A stretch of 64,000 bases of DNA, from contig JAIXTP010000020.1 of NCBI GenBank assembly GCA_027483895.1, positions 27,359-91,358 of the forward strand, written 5' to 3'. Shown here in pieces: positions 26,509-58,586 of this stretch. Source of the DNA: Hyphomicrobiales bacterium. Lineage in GTDB: Bacteria > Pseudomonadota > Alphaproteobacteria > Rhizobiales > Beijerinckiaceae. The translations under genes and the position numbers were made by a program. Each line of letters begins with the position of its first letter. Positions within the stretch are counted from its first letter, which is position 1. Below the pieces are notes generated by a model. It was not told the DNA's origin and made no database searches. It saw only the letters and a list, made by a program, of their open reading frames with translations.

Positions 26509-27936
26509 ATGACGGGCCATTTCGACACCATCATCCGCGGCGGGACCGTGGTGACCGCGGGCGACAGCGTGCGTTGCGACGTCGGCATCCGCGACGGAAA
26601 GGTCGCGGCGCTCGGCATCGATCTCGGCACCGCCGACCGCGTGATCGATGCGGCGGGCAAGCTCGTGATGCCGGGCGGCATCGACAGCCACGTGCACATC
26701 TCGCAGCCCTCGGGCGAGGGCATCGTGATGGCCGACGATTTCGAGAGCGCGACGCGCTCGGCGGCCTTCGGCGGCACCACGACGGTGATGCCCTTCGTGA
26801 TGCAGGAAAAGGGCGTGCCGCTGCGCAGCACGGTCGAGGCCTATCACAAGCTCGCCGCAGGCGAATGCCATGTGGACACCTCGTTCCACCTGATCGTCAG
26901 CGAGCCTTCCGAAGCGGTGCTCGGCCAGGAACTGCCGGCGCTGGTGGAGGACGGCTACACCTCCTTCAAGATCTTCATGACCTATGAGGGGCTCGCGTTG
27001 AACGACCGCGAGATCCTCGAAGTGCTGGACACCGCGCGCGGCTGCGGCGCGCTCGTGATGGTCCATTGCGAGAGCTACGACGCGATCCGCTACATGACGG
27101 AAAAGCTCGAACGCGAAGGGCGGACCGCGCCGAAGTACCATGCGACCTCACGCCCGAAGCTCGTGGAGCGCGAGGCCACGCACCGCGCCATCGCGCATGC
27201 CGAACTCGTCGACGTGCCGATCATGATCGTCCATGTCTCCAACCGCGAGGCGATGGAGCAGATCCGCTGGGCCCAGCAGAAGGGGCTGAACATCCTCGCC
27301 GAGACCTGCCCGCAATATCTCGTGCTGACGGAAGCCGATCTCGACGGGCTCGGGATGGAGGGCGCGAAATATGTCTGCTCGCCCCCGCCGCGCGACCGCG
27401 ACAGCCAGGACGCCTGCTGGGAGGGGCTGCGCACGGGCGTGTTCGGGGTCTTCTCGTCCGACCATTGCCCGTTCCGCTACGAGGACGAAAAGGGCAAGCA
27501 GAACCCCAAGGGGCGGACGAGCTTCCGCTGGGTGCCGAACGGCATGCCCGGCGTCGGCGCGCGTCTCGCGATCCTCTTCTCCGAAGGCGTAATGAAGGGG
27601 CGGCTGACGCCCGAGCAATTCGTCGCGTTGACGGCGACCAATCACGCGCGGACCTATGGCCTCTACCCGCGCAAGGGCACGATCGCCGTGGGCTCCGACG
27701 CCGACATCGCGATCTGGGATCCCGAGCGGAAACTGGTGCTGAGCCACGACCACCTGCGTGACGGGTCCGACTACACGCCCTATGAAGGCCTCGACATCAC
27801 GGGCTGGCCGATCCTCACCATGGTGCGCGGCCGGACCGTCGTGGAAGACGGACGTCTCGTCGGCGAGAAAGGTCACGGGACCTATCTTCCGCGGGATCGC
27901 TCTCCCTATGCGGTACAAGCGAAGGCTGAGGCATGA
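26509..27936 (+). CDS. D-hydantoinase / dihydropyrimidinase (cyclic amidohydrolase)
   Basis: FDTIIRGGTVV, GGIDSHVHI (HxH metal site), SFKIFMTYEG (carboxylated Lys), VMVHCES, CSPPPR and SDHCPF motifs. Confidence 0.9.
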   Translation: MTGHFDTIIRGGTVVTAGDSVRCDVGIRDGKVAALGIDLGTADRVIDAAGKLVMPGGIDSHVHISQPSGEGIVMADDFESATRSAAFGGTTTVMPFVMQEKGVPLRSTVEAYHKLAAGECHVDTSFHLIVSEPSEAVLGQELPALVEDGYTSFKIFMTYEGLALNDREILEVLDTARGCGALVMVHCESYDAIRYMTEKLEREGRTAPKYHATSRPKLVEREATHRAIAHAELVDVPIMIVHVSNREAMEQIRWAQQKGLNILAETCPQYLVLTEADLDGLGMEGAKYVCSPPPRDRDSQDACWEGLRTGVFGVFSSDHCPFRYEDEKGKQNPKGRTSFRWVPNGMPGVGARLAILFSEGVMKGRLTPEQFVALTATNHARTYGLYPRKGTIAVGSDADIAIWDPERKLVLSHDHLRDGSDYTPYEGLDITGWPILTMVRGRTVVEDGRLVGEKGHGTYLPRDRSPYAVQAKAEA

Positions 27937-54078: not shown

Positions 54079-55254
54079 TCAGTCCTTGGCGCGTTTGAGG
54101 CCGGGATGGAGCGCCTTCTCGATGATGGTCTCGTCGCGGCCGATCACGTGCTCGGTGGTGCCGACGATCAGCGGATCCGGTCCCTTGATCACCGAACGGT
54201 CCTTGTTCGGATAGGGCAGAGACGACAGGAAATGCTGCATGCATTCGAGCCGCGCGCGCTTCTTGTCGTCCGACTTCACGACCGTCCACGGCGCGTCGGC
54301 TGTGTCGGTGTAGAAGAACATCGCCTCCTTGGCCTCGGTGTAGTCGTCCCATTTGTCGAGCGAGGCGCGGTCGATGGGCGAGAGCTTCCACTGCTTCAGC
54401 GGATCGTTCTCGCGCGATTTGAAGCGGGCGAGCTGCTCGGCGCGGGAGACCGAGAACCAGTATTTGAACAGGCGGATGCCCGAGCGGACCAGCATCTGCT
54501 CGAAGAGCGGCGCCTCGCGCATGAATTCCAGATATTCGTTGGGCGAGCAGAAGCCCATGACCCGTTCGACGCCCGCGCGGTTGTACCAGGAGCGGTCGAA
54601 CAGGCAGAGCTCGCCGGCCGAAGGAAGATGCGCGACGTATCGCTGGAAGTACCACTGCGTGCGCTCGCGCTCGGTGGGTTTGAGCAGCGCCACGACGCGC
54701 GCCGTGCGCGGGTTCATGTGTTCCATGTAGCGCTTGATCGTGCCGCCCTTGCCGGCCGCGTCGCGGCCTTCGAACAGGATCACGATCTTCTGGCCGGTCT
54801 CCTCGACCCAGCGCTGGCATTTCAGAAGCTCGCGCTGAAGCTCGAGCATGTGAGCCTCGTAGGGCTCGTTGCGCATCTTCGTCCGGTAGGGATATTCGCC
54901 GGTCTCGAACAGCCGCCGGATGAGCGCCGGATCGCTCTTCATCTCGGCGATCGTGGCGGCACGGGCCGGGGCATCGCCGGTGGCCGCGGGCTCGGCCGCG
55001 CCCCGCGGCGCGGAGGGCGCGGCGCCTGCGGCGCTCATGATCGCGCGGGCGCCGTCCGAAGAGCGCGGCTTCGCCGCGGTGCGGGTGCGCGGCGTCTTCG
55101 CGCGGGCGGGGGCGGGACGGGCAGGCGCCTTCGGCTTCGCGGCGGTGCGCGCGGGCTTCTTGGCGGGCAGCGCGATCACGACGGCGGCATCTTCCGCGGG
55201 GCCGCGTTCGGCCGGAGCGTCCGCACGTTCGGTCGGTTCGGTGTCGATGGTCAT
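54079..55254 (-). CDS. ppk2: polyphosphate kinase 2 with an N-terminal basic Ala/Pro/Lys/Arg-rich extension of about 105 aa
   Basis: PPK2 core: ILFEGRDAAGKGGTIKR (Walker A), TQWYFQRYVAHLPSAGELCLFDRSWYNRAGVERVMGF and KLSPID. The N-terminal tail reads AKKPARTAAKPKAPARPAPARAKTPRTRTAAKPR. Confidence 0.9.
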   Translation of the reverse strand: MTIDTEPTERADAPAERGPAEDAAVVIALPAKKPARTAAKPKAPARPAPARAKTPRTRTAAKPRSSDGARAIMSAAGAAPSAPRGAAEPAATGDAPARAATIAEMKSDPALIRRLFETGEYPYRTKMRNEPYEAHMLELQRELLKCQRWVEETGQKIVILFEGRDAAGKGGTIKRYMEHMNPRTARVVALLKPTERERTQWYFQRYVAHLPSAGELCLFDRSWYNRAGVERVMGFCSPNEYLEFMREAPLFEQMLVRSGIRLFKYWFSVSRAEQLARFKSRENDPLKQWKLSPIDRASLDKWDDYTEAKEAMFFYTDTADAPWTVVKSDDKKRARLECMQHFLSSLPYPNKDRSVIKGPDPLIVGTTEHVIGRDETIIEKALHPGLKRAKD

Positions 55255-55354
55255 GCGGGTCTCCGTCGAGGGGGCGATTGCGGAAGGATGCGCCCCTGAG
55301 CGAAAACCGACATGACGCAGGTCAAGTTGCAGCCCCGATTCCCGGATCTCCGCG

Positions 55355-55741
55355 ATGCTGATCGTTCATGACGGCGCATGCCCGCTCTGCCGGTTCTATG
55401 TGCGGCGGCTGCGGCTCGAACGGGCGGCGGGGCCGGTCGAGATCGTCGATGCGCGCTCGGGCGATCCGCGCGTCGCGGAGCTTGCGGCCGCCGGCTACCA
55501 CCTCGATGCGGGCATGGTCGTCGTGCTCGACGGCCGGATCTTTCACGGCGACGAGGCCGTGCATGCGCTCGCGCTGCTTTCGACGCCGATCGACGCCTTC
55601 AACCGGCTGAACCGCGGGCTCCTCGCGCGGCCGGGGATCGCCCGAGCGCTCTATCCGCTCTTCCGGGCGGCGCGCCGCGTCGCGCTGGCGCTGACCGGCG
55701 TCGGGCCCTTGCGCCCCGGTCAGAAGGACCCGGCGGCGTAG
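55355..55741 (+). CDS. DCC-family (DUF393) thiol-disulfide oxidoreductase
   Basis: N-terminal LIVHDGACPLCRFYV (the DxxCxxC motif of the DCC family). 128 aa. Confidence 0.8.
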   Translation: MLIVHDGACPLCRFYVRRLRLERAAGPVEIVDARSGDPRVAELAAAGYHLDAGMVVVLDGRIFHGDEAVHALALLSTPIDAFNRLNRGLLARPGIARALYPLFRAARRVALALTGVGPLRPGQKDPAA

Positions 55742-56517
55742 ACGATCGCCGGAAAGGTCGCGGCCCAGGCGAAGACGAAGCGGTTGAGGCCGAAGAAGCG
55801 GAAGACGAGCAGGTGGAAGACGAGCGCCACCGCGCAGCAGGCCGCGGCGACCGCGGGCGCGACGAGCGCGAGCGGGAAGGCGCATTCCCAGAGAATGAAG
55901 CCCCAGCTGCAGGCGAGCGCCACGGCAGGGCGGCGGAAGACGGAGCCCGGCGGCAGCGGGCCGTAGATGCCGCCGTCCAAGAAGATCGGCAAAGCGCGGC
56001 CGGACCGCCAATCGGCATCGAGCAGCTTCACGGCGCCGGAGACGAAATAGGAGGAGATCGCCTGCACCGCGGCGTACCAGAGCGCCGCCGCCGCTCCGGT
56101 CTCCGCCCGGCCGAACAGCGCGCCCGCATCGGCGATGACGAGCGCGGTGAGAACCGCGACCGTCATGAAGTCGCTGCCGCCGTTGAAGGCGCCGCGCCAG
56201 CGGATGAGGATCGCGAGCGTGCCCAGAAACAGGAACAGGCTCACCGGCAGGCCGAAGCCGAAGGGCAGCAGGAGCGCGGCGACCAGGCGCAGGACGAGAT
56301 GCGCCGTGTGGACCGGCGGGCGCGAGAGCATGGCGAAGGCGGCGCGCACCGGCGCACCGGCATGGGCGAGGTCGCCCTGCTGGACCGCGAAGCTCCACAC
56401 GCCCGCAGGCCCCAGCGGGGCGCGCAGGCGGAGGAATTCGAGCGTCTGGACGACGAGGCTCACGGCGCAGAGCGCGCGCATGAGGGCGAGCGCGTCGAAG
56501 GCGGAGAGAGCGCTCAT
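55720..56517 (-). CDS. HTTM-domain (vitamin K-dependent gamma-carboxylase-like / SdpB-like) integral membrane protein
   Basis: Polytopic, with RWRGAFNGGSDFMTVAVL and SSYFVSGAVKLLDADWRSGRAL, which resemble the conserved HTTM/SdpB core motifs. Start at ATG 56517. The 3' end overlaps the DCC gene by 22 nt (convergent). Confidence 0.6.
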   Translation of the reverse strand: MSALSAFDALALMRALCAVSLVVQTLEFLRLRAPLGPAGVWSFAVQQGDLAHAGAPVRAAFAMLSRPPVHTAHLVLRLVAALLLPFGFGLPVSLFLFLGTLAILIRWRGAFNGGSDFMTVAVLTALVIADAGALFGRAETGAAAALWYAAVQAISSYFVSGAVKLLDADWRSGRALPIFLDGGIYGPLPPGSVFRRPAVALACSWGFILWECAFPLALVAPAVAAACCAVALVFHLLVFRFFGLNRFVFAWAATFPAIVYAAGSF

Positions 56518-57014
56518 GCGGGCAGGCCCGGCGAGAGAAGCACCACGTCTTCCTCGTCGTCCCGCAGGTCCCCGGGCCGCTCGGACCGGATGCGGAACTG
56601 GAAGCGGGCGGCGCCCGGCGCCGCAGATCCGACCTTCTCCCGGGCCAACCGTTCGACGAGGCGGTAGGAGACGAGGGCGGAGGGGTCGTCGCCCTCGCAC
56701 TCGGCGATGTCGGCGGCGAGGTGGTCGACGAGGTTCTGCTCGGTCAGCGCGAGATTGACCTCGGGATTGTGCAGGAGGTTCGCGAGCCGGAAGGGCGCAC
56801 GCGGATGCATCCGCACCCAGCCGGACCAGTCCTCGCCGGAGGACCAGCGATATTCGAGCCGCGGGGCGCGGCCGAGCGCGTGATAGAAGCGCCAGTTCGG
56901 AAAGAAGCTGCGCAGCAGGAACAGCCAGGGCCCGGAGACCGAGCGTCCGCGTGCGACGAGCGCCGTGGCGAGAACGGCGAAATAGGCGAGGAACAGGCCG
57001 AGGGTGAAGGACAC
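56514..57014 (-). CDS. hypothetical N-terminally anchored protein, SdpA-like by size and position
   Basis: 166 aa with one N-terminal TM helix (FTLGLFLAYFAVLATALVA). ATGA overlap with the downstream HTTM gene. Homology to SdpA was not verified. Confidence 0.4.
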   Translation of the reverse strand: MSFTLGLFLAYFAVLATALVARGRSVSGPWLFLLRSFFPNWRFYHALGRAPRLEYRWSSGEDWSGWVRMHPRAPFRLANLLHNPEVNLALTEQNLVDHLAADIAECEGDDPSALVSYRLVERLAREKVGSAAPGAARFQFRIRSERPGDLRDDEEDVVLLSPGLPA

Positions 57015-57089
57015 TGAAAGCGGAACTCCCGCCGCCCTTGGGGCGACGGGAGGGATCCTAGCTTCGGCTCCGCCGTCCGGCCAGCATGA

Positions 57090-58586
57090 TCAGGCCGCGC
57101 CGGGCAGGGCCTTGCGGTCGGTGATCATGCGCCAGGCCATGCCGACCCAGACCACCAGCGTGAGCGCGGCGAGAATGCCCGCGATCGGACGCGAGACGAA
57201 GGGAAGGATGCTTCCGTCCGACTTGATCATGGAGGTCATGAAGGTCTGTTCGAGCATCTCTCCGAGCACGAGCCCGAGAATGATAGGCGCCACGGGGAAG
57301 CCGTTCTCTTCGAGGATCCAGCCCACGACGCCGCCGATCAGCATGATGAGGATGGCGTAGTCGCTGTTCGTGATCGCGAACGAACCCACGATGCAGAACA
57401 TCAGAATGATCGGCGAGAGCACGTTGCGCGGCACGGACAGGATCCGCTTGGCCGACTTGATCGCGACCCAGCCGATGGGGAGCATCAGCAGGTTGGCGAT
57501 GATGAAGACGATGAACACCGCGTAGATGAATTGCGGGTTCTGCAGGAACACGCTAGGGCCGGGGTTCATGTTCTTCATGTAGAGGACGCCGATCACGATC
57601 GCCGTGATCGAGTCGCCCGGGATGCCGAAGACGAGGGCCGGGATCCACGCGCCGCCGAGAGCCGAATTGTTCGCTGAAGTCGCGTCCACGATGCCTTCGA
57701 TATGGCCGGTGCCGAATTTCTCCGGCTCCTTCGACGCCCTCTTGGACACCGCATAGGAGACCCAGGCCGCGATGTCCGCGCCCGCGCCCGGCAGCGCGCC
57801 GATGACGGTGCCGAGAATCGAGCCGCGCAGGAAGTTCACCCAGTACCGACGGAACACGTCGGCGATGCCGGTGAAGATGTTGCCGATCGACTGCGCGAAG
57901 GTGTGGGCCGCATTGTTGATCGTGGGCGCGTTGCGCAGCAGTTCCGAGACCGCGAACACGCCGATCATCACGGGAATGAAGCTCACGCCCGACAGAAGAT
58001 CCACATTGCCGTAGGTGAAGCGCGGCACGCCGGCGGCCGGATCGATGCCGATCGTGCCGATGGCGAGGCCCAGCAGCAGAGCGATGAAGCCCTTCAGCGC
58101 GTCTTCCGTGGCGATGAGGATCGCGCAGGTCAGGCCGAGGAGCGCCAGCCAGAAATATTCGTAGGACGAGAAGTTGATCGCGAGCTCCGCGAGGCTCGGC
58201 GCCATGAAGATCAGGGCCGCGACGCCGACGAGGCCGCCGAGCACGGAAAAGACGAGGTTCACGCCGAGATTGAGCTCCGTCTCGCCCTTCTTGGCCATCA
58301 TGTAGCTTTCGTCGGCATAGGCGGCCGAGGCCGGCGTGCCGGGAATGCGCAGCAGCGTGCCGGGGATGTCTCCCGCGAAGATCGCCATGGTGGTGGCCGA
58401 AACGATGGCCGAGAGCGCCTGCACCGGCGGCATGAAGAACGTCACCGGAACCAGCAGTGCCGTCGCCATGGTCGCCGTGAGCCCGGGCATGGCGCCGACG
58501 AAGATGCCGAACATCGACGACAGGAGAATGGTGAGAAGCACGTCGGCCTGGAAGACGAGGCCGAGCGCCGTGAGGATCACATCCAT
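57090..58586 (-). CDS. tctA: tripartite tricarboxylate transporter large permease TctA
   Basis: 498 aa and about 12 TM helices. GMPGLTATMATALLVP and GALPGAGADIAAWVSY are the repeated TctA motifs. Confidence 0.9.
   Translation of the reverse strand: MDVILTALGLVFQADVLLTILLSSMFGIFVGAMPGLTATMATALLVPVTFFMPPVQALSAIVSATTMAIFAGDIPGTLLRIPGTPASAAYADESYMMAKKGETELNLGVNLVFSVLGGLVGVAALIFMAPSLAELAINFSSYEYFWLALLGLTCAILIATEDALKGFIALLLGLAIGTIGIDPAAGVPRFTYGNVDLLSGVSFIPVMIGVFAVSELLRNAPTINNAAHTFAQSIGNIFTGIADVFRRYWVNFLRGSILGTVIGALPGAGADIAAWVSYAVSKRASKEPEKFGTGHIEGIVDATSANNSALGGAWIPALVFGIPGDSITAIVIGVLYMKNMNPGPSVFLQNPQFIYAVFIVFIIANLLMLPIGWVAIKSAKRILSVPRNVLSPIILMFCIVGSFAITNSDYAILIMLIGGVVGWILEENGFPVAPIILGLVLGEMLEQTFMTSMIKSDGSILPFVSRPIAGILAALTLVVWVGMAWRMITDRKALPGAA

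Follow-up and report, generated by a model that had tools for sequence, protein, structure and literature searches.

A strictly paired small protein and HTTM-type membrane protein in Proteobacteria, with an accessory DCC oxidoreductase gene

Introduction

Can the chemistry of GGCX, the vitamin K-dependent gamma-carboxylase, run on ubiquinol at the cytoplasmic face of a membrane? This question is raised by three genes of a Hyphomicrobiales bacterium (family Beijerinckiaceae; assembly GCA_027483895.1, 3.15 Mb in 37 contigs, 93% complete) that lie on contig 20 (JAIXTP010000020.1), within a stretch of 64,000 nucleotides (nt; positions 27,359 to 91,358) that was analysed as a whole and is called the window below. 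They encode A1, a polytopic membrane protein of 265 amino acids (aa), A2, its 166-aa partner, and a protein of the DCC family of thiol-disulfide oxidoreductases. In GGCX, oxygenation of a quinol yields a base able to deprotonate carbon. To our knowledge, a single animal enzyme and a single biosynthetic enzyme of Streptomyces are the known cases of this chemistry, and the bacterial HTTM proteins, which share the GGCX fold, are widespread and essentially uncharacterised.

We give an even chance to the reading that the locus encodes a split, minimal GGCX-like quinol/O2 enzyme complex, with A1 as its core, A2 as a cap or specificity subunit, the DCC protein as an accessory reductant and a substrate encoded at an unlinked site. 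An initial annotation, made from the sequence alone, had described the same genes as a trio resembling the SdpA and SdpB proteins of Bacillus subtilis, with no substrate gene in view. The folds and the missing substrate gene have stood up to analysis; the kinship to Sdp proteins and the idea of an obligate trio have not.

The membrane protein A1

A1 is encoded on the minus strand (55720-56517; 265 aa counted from the ATG) and has seven helices of transmembrane length. On the HTTM model PF05090 it scores 23.2 bits, below the cut-off of 27.7 (E 6e-5) and with its C-terminal half alone, and a match at E<=0.01 is obtained for just 6 of 38 close homologues. The HTTM/GGCX fold proposed in the initial annotation is therefore sub-threshold in Pfam, but it emerges clearly from structure prediction. 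The AlphaFold2 (AF2) model, computed with a 38-sequence alignment as input, has a predicted local distance difference test score (pLDDT) of 90.2 and a predicted template modelling score (pTM) of 0.88. When this model is compared with the PDB by Foldseek, the top 13 matches are all human GGCX (probability 1.00, template modelling (TM) score 0.57-0.63, whole query), and the first match to any other protein has a TM score of 0.2. In addition, the A1 profile reaches shorter homologues of 226-233 aa (E 1e-36 to 1e-42), and the four of these that were scanned lie above the PF05090 cut-off with 35.6-49.1 bits. The A1-type neighbours in loci L107 and L108 are precomputed as HTTM, and RefSeq names the homologue on a Paroceanicella plasmid 'HTTM domain-containing protein', its A2-type partner there being a 'hypothetical protein'. 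Because of the quality of the model, the GGCX-only PDB matches and the homologues above the HTTM cut-off, we regard the fold as settled: as modelled, A1 has the GGCX-type HTTM transmembrane fold. A1 and human GGCX share 15-18% sequence identity, and the relationship is beyond detection by HMMER; PDB sequence searches that used the A1 profile or a 78-aa stretch surrounding K164 failed to retrieve GGCX.

Across the extended family, the invariant residues of A1 are N112-G-G-S-D116, K164, W170, E211, F234-H235 and G243-x-N-R-F247. The FNGGSD and SGAVKL...W.SG motifs already singled out in the initial annotation, together with DGACPLC in the DCC protein, are all present, the first two being invariant across the family. 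In GGCX, the hydroquinone is deprotonated by Lys218, has Trp223 stacked on it and Asp263 beside it, and CO2 is held by Phe299 (PMC12647623). In a bacterial HTTM-DCC protein, Lys189, Trp195 and Phe273 are reported to surround a modelled menaquinol (bioRxiv 10.64898/2026.08.19.745780). The spacing in the latter (Lys +6 to Trp, +84 to Phe) is nearly that of A1, in which W170 follows K164 at +6 and the invariant F247 at +83. From motif and spacing we infer that K164, W170, E211 and F247 of A1 are the equivalents of GGCX Lys218, Trp223, Asp263 and Phe299.

The partner family A2 and its pairing with A1

A2 (56514-57014, minus strand; open reading frame (ORF) with a GTG start) consists of an N-terminal transmembrane helix (residues 3-20), followed by the segment R35-x-F-F-P39-x-W41-x-F43, which is near-invariant, and an alpha/beta domain. 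The 166-aa ORF can be taken as coding because it has hundreds of homologues of equal length (A1 likewise has hundreds of same-length homologues), and its GC content at third codon positions (GC3) of 0.89 agrees with this; the initial annotation was thus correct in calling it a gene. There are 230 close homologues, and among 1.84 billion representative proteins the family comprises 1002 clusters (50% identity) at E<=1e-3, or 604 at E<=1e-10. Among the best 150 homologues listed, the length is nearly always 100-210 aa, with a few up to 328 aa, and no fusions occur; the longer ones that were read carry low-complexity inserts or tails instead of extra domains. Neither A2 nor 100 of its relatives match any Pfam or NCBIfam model, A2 has no match in the PADLOC defence models, and its profile matches no PDB sequence.

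The AF2 model of A2 (pLDDT 81) gives no meaningful match to PDB folds (TM score at most 0.22) and none to GGCX. Its confidence drops to about 56 in the region of the conserved motif, so that the most conserved segment of A2 is also the lowest-confidence part of the monomer model. Such a pattern fits a segment that becomes ordered only upon binding to A1, i.e., an interface.

Synteny was analysed by pattern scanning of one genome per species; 162 species had a close A2 relative and the best 80 loci were retained, 76 of which extend far enough downstream of A2 for counts of the pairing and of the DCC gene. A1 lies directly downstream of A2 in all 76, in full agreement with the tight pairing of the two genes noticed in the initial annotation. 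The distance from the A2 stop to the A1 start is -4 nt in 37 of 68 loci (the ATGA overlap that can be read off the sequence of the window) and between -13 and +3 nt in 65 of 68, a spacing that is, at the level of gene layout, the signature of translational coupling. The pairing is kept at about 25-30% identity, in two metagenome loci, on the Paroceanicella profunda plasmid and for 8/8 matches in an independent sample of 301 Alphaproteobacteria genomes. A2 founds a family without Pfam or NCBIfam matches, and the next gene downstream always encodes an HTTM protein. The module is of low and patchy prevalence: it occurs in 8 of the 301 Alphaproteobacteria genomes and in neither of two other sampled genomes from the window's own family.

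The absence of a co-located substrate gene, pointed out in the initial annotation, extends to the loci compared. When all ORFs of the 80 loci were clustered, no fourth gene recurred across lineages, only shadow ORFs and lineage-specific neighbours being found. No conserved small ORF (18-90 aa) is present within 700 nt on either side of the module, and no precursor-like, immunity or protease gene recurs in the 76 loci, whose flanks are varied.

A shorter sister form of the module is found in loci L111-L117 (e.g., L117:3399-4498, on plasmid pD4M1F of Paroceanicella profunda, a cultured marine strain). Its A2 protein measures 130-180 aa by ORF calls (139 aa in RefSeq), has no transmembrane helix and carries the motif LLxPALxPSWRFF at or near the N-terminus. 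Its HTTM protein of 226-233 aa is without the 31-66 loop, and the 4-nt overlap of the two genes is kept.

The DCC gene

The DCC gene (55355-55741, plus strand, ORF of 128 aa) is convergent to A1, and the 3' ends of the two genes overlap by 22 nt, as read off the sequence. Its product reaches 35 bits on PF04134 (the DCC1-like/YuxK family, formerly DUF393), above the cut-off of 27.8, which upholds the initial assignment. The DxxCxxC motif of the family is present as D6-G-A-C9-P-L-C12 and is conserved in all full-length rows of a 21-sequence subfamily alignment, one row being N-terminally truncated; no signal peptide is predicted. Compared with canonical paralogues, which score 78-100 bits, the copy in the window is divergent, and it is positionally tied to A1.

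A DCC gene accompanies the pair in 20 of the 76 loci, convergent to A1 every time, with an end-to-end gap of -29 to +7 nt in 19 of the 20 and of +246 nt in one. The A1-linked DCC proteins form a dedicated subfamily: their hidden Markov model (HMM) gives 175-210 bits on A1-linked copies vs 12-17 bits on other DCC genes of the same or of DCC-less genomes, and the subfamily was not found in five checked DCC-less genomes. In the A1 tree, all DCC-linked loci fall inside one clade (support 100/99) that spans Alpha-, Beta- and Gammaproteobacteria. The tree requires about five gains or losses of the gene, and a 41-member Comamonadaceae clade has no DCC gene at all. Apart from DCC, the neighbours vary among the linked loci, which come from Hyphomicrobiales, Beijerinckiaceae, Oxalobacteraceae and Burkholderiaceae. 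Since it has its own A1-linked subfamily, yet is present in a minority of the loci, the DCC protein is a real but accessory partner; the A2-A1 pair is obligate, but the trio initially described is not.

A second DCC gene of the host genome (contig 13, 246129-246449; 77.7 bits on PF04134) is canonical and has no HTTM match linked to it.

Next to the invariant Glu211, A1 has a cysteine, Cys212 (55882-55884, motif WEC), which occurs in 31 of 33 members of the clade that holds all DCC-linked loci and in 0/41 members of the DCC-free Comamonadaceae clade. Cysteines of A1 or A2 that track the presence of the DCC gene were considered and rejected: Cys212 follows the clade and not DCC within it, being retained by most clade members that lost DCC, and A2 has no conserved Cys.

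Cofactor and membrane orientation

Two ubiquinone hydroxylases of the host genome score above the cut-off (382 and 307 bits). Among menaquinone genes, no MqnA/D family match was found in this 93% complete genome, and the best MenD match reaches 62.9 bits vs a cut-off of 244. Any quinol cofactor of A1 would hence be ubiquinol, given the hydroxylases and the sub-threshold MenD and MqnA/D results.

Several features bear on the side of the membrane to which A1 is exposed. Its motif-bearing loops hold about 10 Lys+Arg on average vs about none on the opposite, very short loops. Positive charges follow the transmembrane helix of A2, which is predicted to be N-out/C-in. Distant A2 homologues have neither a transmembrane helix nor a signal peptide, the RefSeq gene call included. 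Taken together with the DCC protein, which likewise is without a transmembrane helix or signal peptide, this points to an active site of A1 that faces the cytoplasm, opposite to the lumenal site of GGCX.

Comparison with known HTTM systems

Human GGCX (PDB 9BUR, 9WFC) resembles A1 in its transmembrane fold (TM score 0.6 across all of A1) and, as far as motif and spacing suggest, in its quinol-site Lys, Trp, acidic and Phe residues. It is a much larger protein, with 758 aa and nine transmembrane helices vs 265 aa and seven helices of that length. The chain of A1 stops at residue 265, and its AF2 model shows no extramembrane domain, neither the lumenal clamp nor the C-terminal domain of GGCX; the predicted orientation is opposite, and vitamin K is absent from the host. 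The Streptomyces enzyme MloH, the malonomycin aspartyl carboxylase, is a bacterial HTTM enzyme with a non-Gla (gamma-carboxyglutamate) substrate and extends GGCX-type chemistry beyond carboxylation of protein Glu. It differs in being a single fused polypeptide from a biosynthetic gene cluster, whereas A2-A1 is split and lies in no conserved cluster.

The closest parallel to A2-A1 is the complex of a DUF5819 protein with an HTTM-DCC protein, itself only predicted, in 2026. The DUF5819 protein (about 190 aa, with an N-terminal transmembrane helix and a domain of about 150-160 aa) is predicted in a preprint to form a confident complex with the adjacent HTTM-DCC1 fusion of Melghirimyces thermohalophilus, thereby completing a GGCX-like assembly in which its helix and domain replace a GGCX transmembrane helix and part of the lumenal clamp (bioRxiv 10.64898/2026.08.19.745780). 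Both systems have a small protein with an N-terminal transmembrane helix encoded beside an HTTM protein, an associated DCC oxidoreductase, and a conserved Lys-x5-Trp pair with a downstream Phe in the HTTM part. In the present case, however, DCC is encoded by a separate, convergent gene instead of a C-terminal fusion and is absent at most loci, and the hosts are Proteobacteria of the ubiquinone type. DUF5819 (PF19136) has no match in the six-frame translation of the host genome at E<=1 and none in 301 Pseudomonadota genomes.

A possible mechanism and its alternatives

The split GGCX-like complex favoured above could function as follows. A1 would be the membrane-embedded catalytic HTTM core, and translational coupling would set a fixed A2:A1 ratio. 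The RxFFPxWxF segment of A2 may dock on the conserved face of A1 and cap its pocket, and A2 would probably recognise the substrate, a task comparable to that of the lumenal domain of GGCX and to the one predicted for DUF5819 proteins with HTTM-DCC fusions. The reaction would occur on the cytoplasmic side of the inner membrane: from a membrane quinol (ubiquinol in this host) and O2, the complex would produce a strong base or oxidant, which would modify a substrate that is encoded elsewhere and is probably a lipid, small molecule or housekeeping protein. The DCC protein would be an accessory thiol reductant of the cytoplasm, present in the ancestor of one clade and repeatedly lost since. It would either regenerate the oxidised cofactor, the part played by VKOR for GGCX, or keep an active-site thiol reduced.

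A number of points weigh against this scheme. The equivalences between residues of A1 and GGCX come from motif and spacing, not from residue-level superposition. His160 of GGCX is needed for deprotonation of Glu and use of CO2, the Asn159-His160 pair binding and activating the Glu substrate. At the corresponding site of A1, as far as an inferred alignment can tell, N112 is followed by the invariant Gly-Gly-Ser-Asp, and by spacing the counterpart of His160 appears to be Gly113, which makes carboxylation of Glu by A1 doubtful. The lumenal clamp domains with which GGCX binds propeptides have no equivalent in A1. A2 has no detectable similarity to DUF5819, whose model gives no match in 40 + 54 + 6 members of the A2 family at E<=0.1-1, or to SdpA. 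We know of no HTTM enzyme that uses ubiquinol, and the host shows no menaquinone pathway. A cytoplasmic active site would be inverted relative to that of GGCX, and long structured loops are a case in which the charge rule could be misleading. Finally, DCC is missing from 74% of the loci and its subfamily from the five DCC-less genomes checked, so that it must be non-essential, and a convergent instead of an operonic placement is unusual for a partner.

Alternatively, A2-A1 could be a non-redox device that reuses the HTTM fold, for example for the handling of lipids or quinones, for scaffolding or for transport, with DCC acting elsewhere. Biochemical understanding is limited to one type of HTTM enzyme (GGCX/MloH), the size of A1 is far below that of GGCX, an equivalent of His160 is missing, DCC is dispensable in most lineages, and some of the lineage-specific neighbours (an LpxO-like hydroxylase and a MAPEG protein) are related to the envelope or to lipids. 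We nevertheless consider such a device unlikely, as invariance at identities as low as about 30% is seen for the residues that by motif and spacing match the quinol-site set of GGCX (Lys, Trp, acidic, Phe and the NGGSD loop), which argues for conserved chemistry over a scaffold, and as the neighbours vary by lineage with no consistent theme. The role of DCC can also be questioned separately. It is not co-transcribed with A1 but convergent to it, and is missing from 56/76 loci including the whole Comamonadaceae clade; the gene could therefore be a mere neighbour without functional link, the trio being really a pair. Several observations make such a coincidence quite improbable: the linked DCC is a distinct subfamily found at this position alone, the apposition of the DCC and A1 3' ends (-29 to +7 nt) is conserved in 19/20 loci from four taxa with differing neighbours, HTTM-DCC fusions are known in other phyla, and all DCC-linked loci sit in one A1 clade with a clade-specific Cys beside the invariant Glu (31/33 vs 0/41).

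The remaining alternative goes back to the initial annotation and takes the pair for an SdpAB-like machine that matures or exports a secreted antimicrobial peptide, the precursor gene lying elsewhere in the genome. In B. subtilis, the sdpA-sdpB genes (and yitP/yitO) have the same order of a gene for a protein of about 160 aa followed by one for an HTTM-type polytopic membrane protein, SdpC processing depends on SdpA and SdpB (PMC6818787), and HTTM genes have also been found in clusters for linaridins (PMC9927463), which are ribosomally synthesised peptides with post-translational modifications (RiPPs). The likeness is, as judged from the genes themselves, confined to their order and to protein size, and the analogy fails at the family level. 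The models for SdpA (PF17418, TIGR04034), SdpB (TIGR04033) and SdpC (TIGR04032), each of which scores above its own cut-off in B. subtilis as a control, match none of the proteins of the locus (for A1 vs SdpB, nothing at E<=0.1) and nothing in the six-frame genome at E<=1, and 100 relatives of A2 are equally without a match. An adjacent toxin precursor or immunity operon is lacking, a DCC partner sometimes being present instead, and no precursor, immunity or protease gene or small ORF recurs in the 76 loci, although precursors of RiPPs and toxins are usually clustered with their modifying enzymes. Signal peptides are absent from the partner proteins, and the cytoplasmic position predicted for the conserved face of A1 is a poor fit to the export of a secreted peptide. 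Altogether, an Sdp-type function is very improbable.

The scheme of a split GGCX-like complex can be taken further, to a minimal GGCX-type 'base-amplification' enzyme that would be driven by ubiquinol and face the cytoplasm, with A2 as a family of substrate-selecting subunits and the clade-specific DCC as a soluble counterpart of VKOR. This extended version is tentative and, in our opinion, has little chance of being correct in all its parts. If it were true, oxygenation-driven C-H activation in the style of vitamin K, be it carboxylation or another reaction, would extend to ubiquinone-only Proteobacteria and to a new cellular compartment. Whatever the chemistry, what the locus defines is a compact version made of two genes, with products of 226-265 aa and 140-170 aa, and a new family of obligate partners. 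Both the A2 family and the A1 subfamily have so far been effectively unannotated, and the strictly coupled A2 proteins merit a family definition of their own even if the module is catalytically unrelated to GGCX. Cultured carriers, namely several Limnohabitans strains, Ramlibacter sp. CGMCC 1.61873 and Paroceanicella profunda D4M1, make the function of a bacterial HTTM protein directly testable.

Gene layout and neighbourhood

Direct reading of the sequence bears out the three ORFs of the initial annotation together with their coordinates and overlaps. GC content by codon position is coding-like in all three frames (GC3 0.88-0.93; about 0.5 at second positions), a pattern that the long overlapping shadow ORFs do not show. 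A longer version of A1 with 326 aa, starting from a GTG at 56700, was dropped, since homologues measure 260-268 aa and the extension overlaps A2.

The spacer between tctA and A2 measures 75 nt and contains a GC-rich hairpin with 12 bp (57026-57052, minus strand), CUCCCGUCGCCC-CAA-GGGCGGCGGGAG. Its 3' arm holds a GGGAG run located 11 nt upstream of the GTG start of A2, and a 91-nt stretch that includes the hairpin folds at -42.3 kcal/mol (z = -2.0). The structure could be a weak terminator or could sequester the ribosome-binding site of A2, and whether it is part of the module is uncertain. A consensus scan of 55100-57300 called no canonical terminator and no sigma-70 promoter.

The trio is flanked by ppk2 (PF03976, 351 bits) and tctA (PF01970, 454 bits), as the initial annotation had it, and the closest relatives at the locus are freshwater Hyphomicrobiales metagenome-assembled genomes (MAGs). 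The product of ppk2 (54079-55254, minus strand) has a low-complexity N-terminal extension of about 125 aa that is rich in Ala, Pro and Lys, the PPK2 domain occupying residues 128-353.

Elsewhere, the lineage-specific neighbours include MinCDE, an M23 peptidase, an LpxO-like hydroxylase, a carbonic anhydrase and a MAPEG protein. In loci of the Oxalobacteraceae and Polynucleobacter types (L023-L086; e.g., L032:4869-5792 and L067:2723-3529), a divergent LpxO-like Asp/Asn beta-hydroxylase gene (PF05118, 177 bits) adjoins A2-A1. An alpha-carbonic anhydrase gene (PF00194) lies three to four genes away in the same types of loci, an arrangement that is lineage-specific yet curious beside a protein with a carboxylase fold. 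One Limnohabitans group (L027, L030, L058, L062, L074, L076 and L088; e.g., L030:5181-5573) has a gene for a glutathione-transferase-like membrane protein of the MAPEG family directly upstream of A2 on the opposite strand, and these lineages have no DCC gene. Lastly, the MAG titles 'uncultured Bifidobacterium sp.' and 'Bordetella parapertussis' (L023, L029, L044, L028, L045, L053, L056, L063 and L089) look mislabelled, because in the A1 tree the loci group with those of freshwater Burkholderiales, with which they also have their synteny in common.

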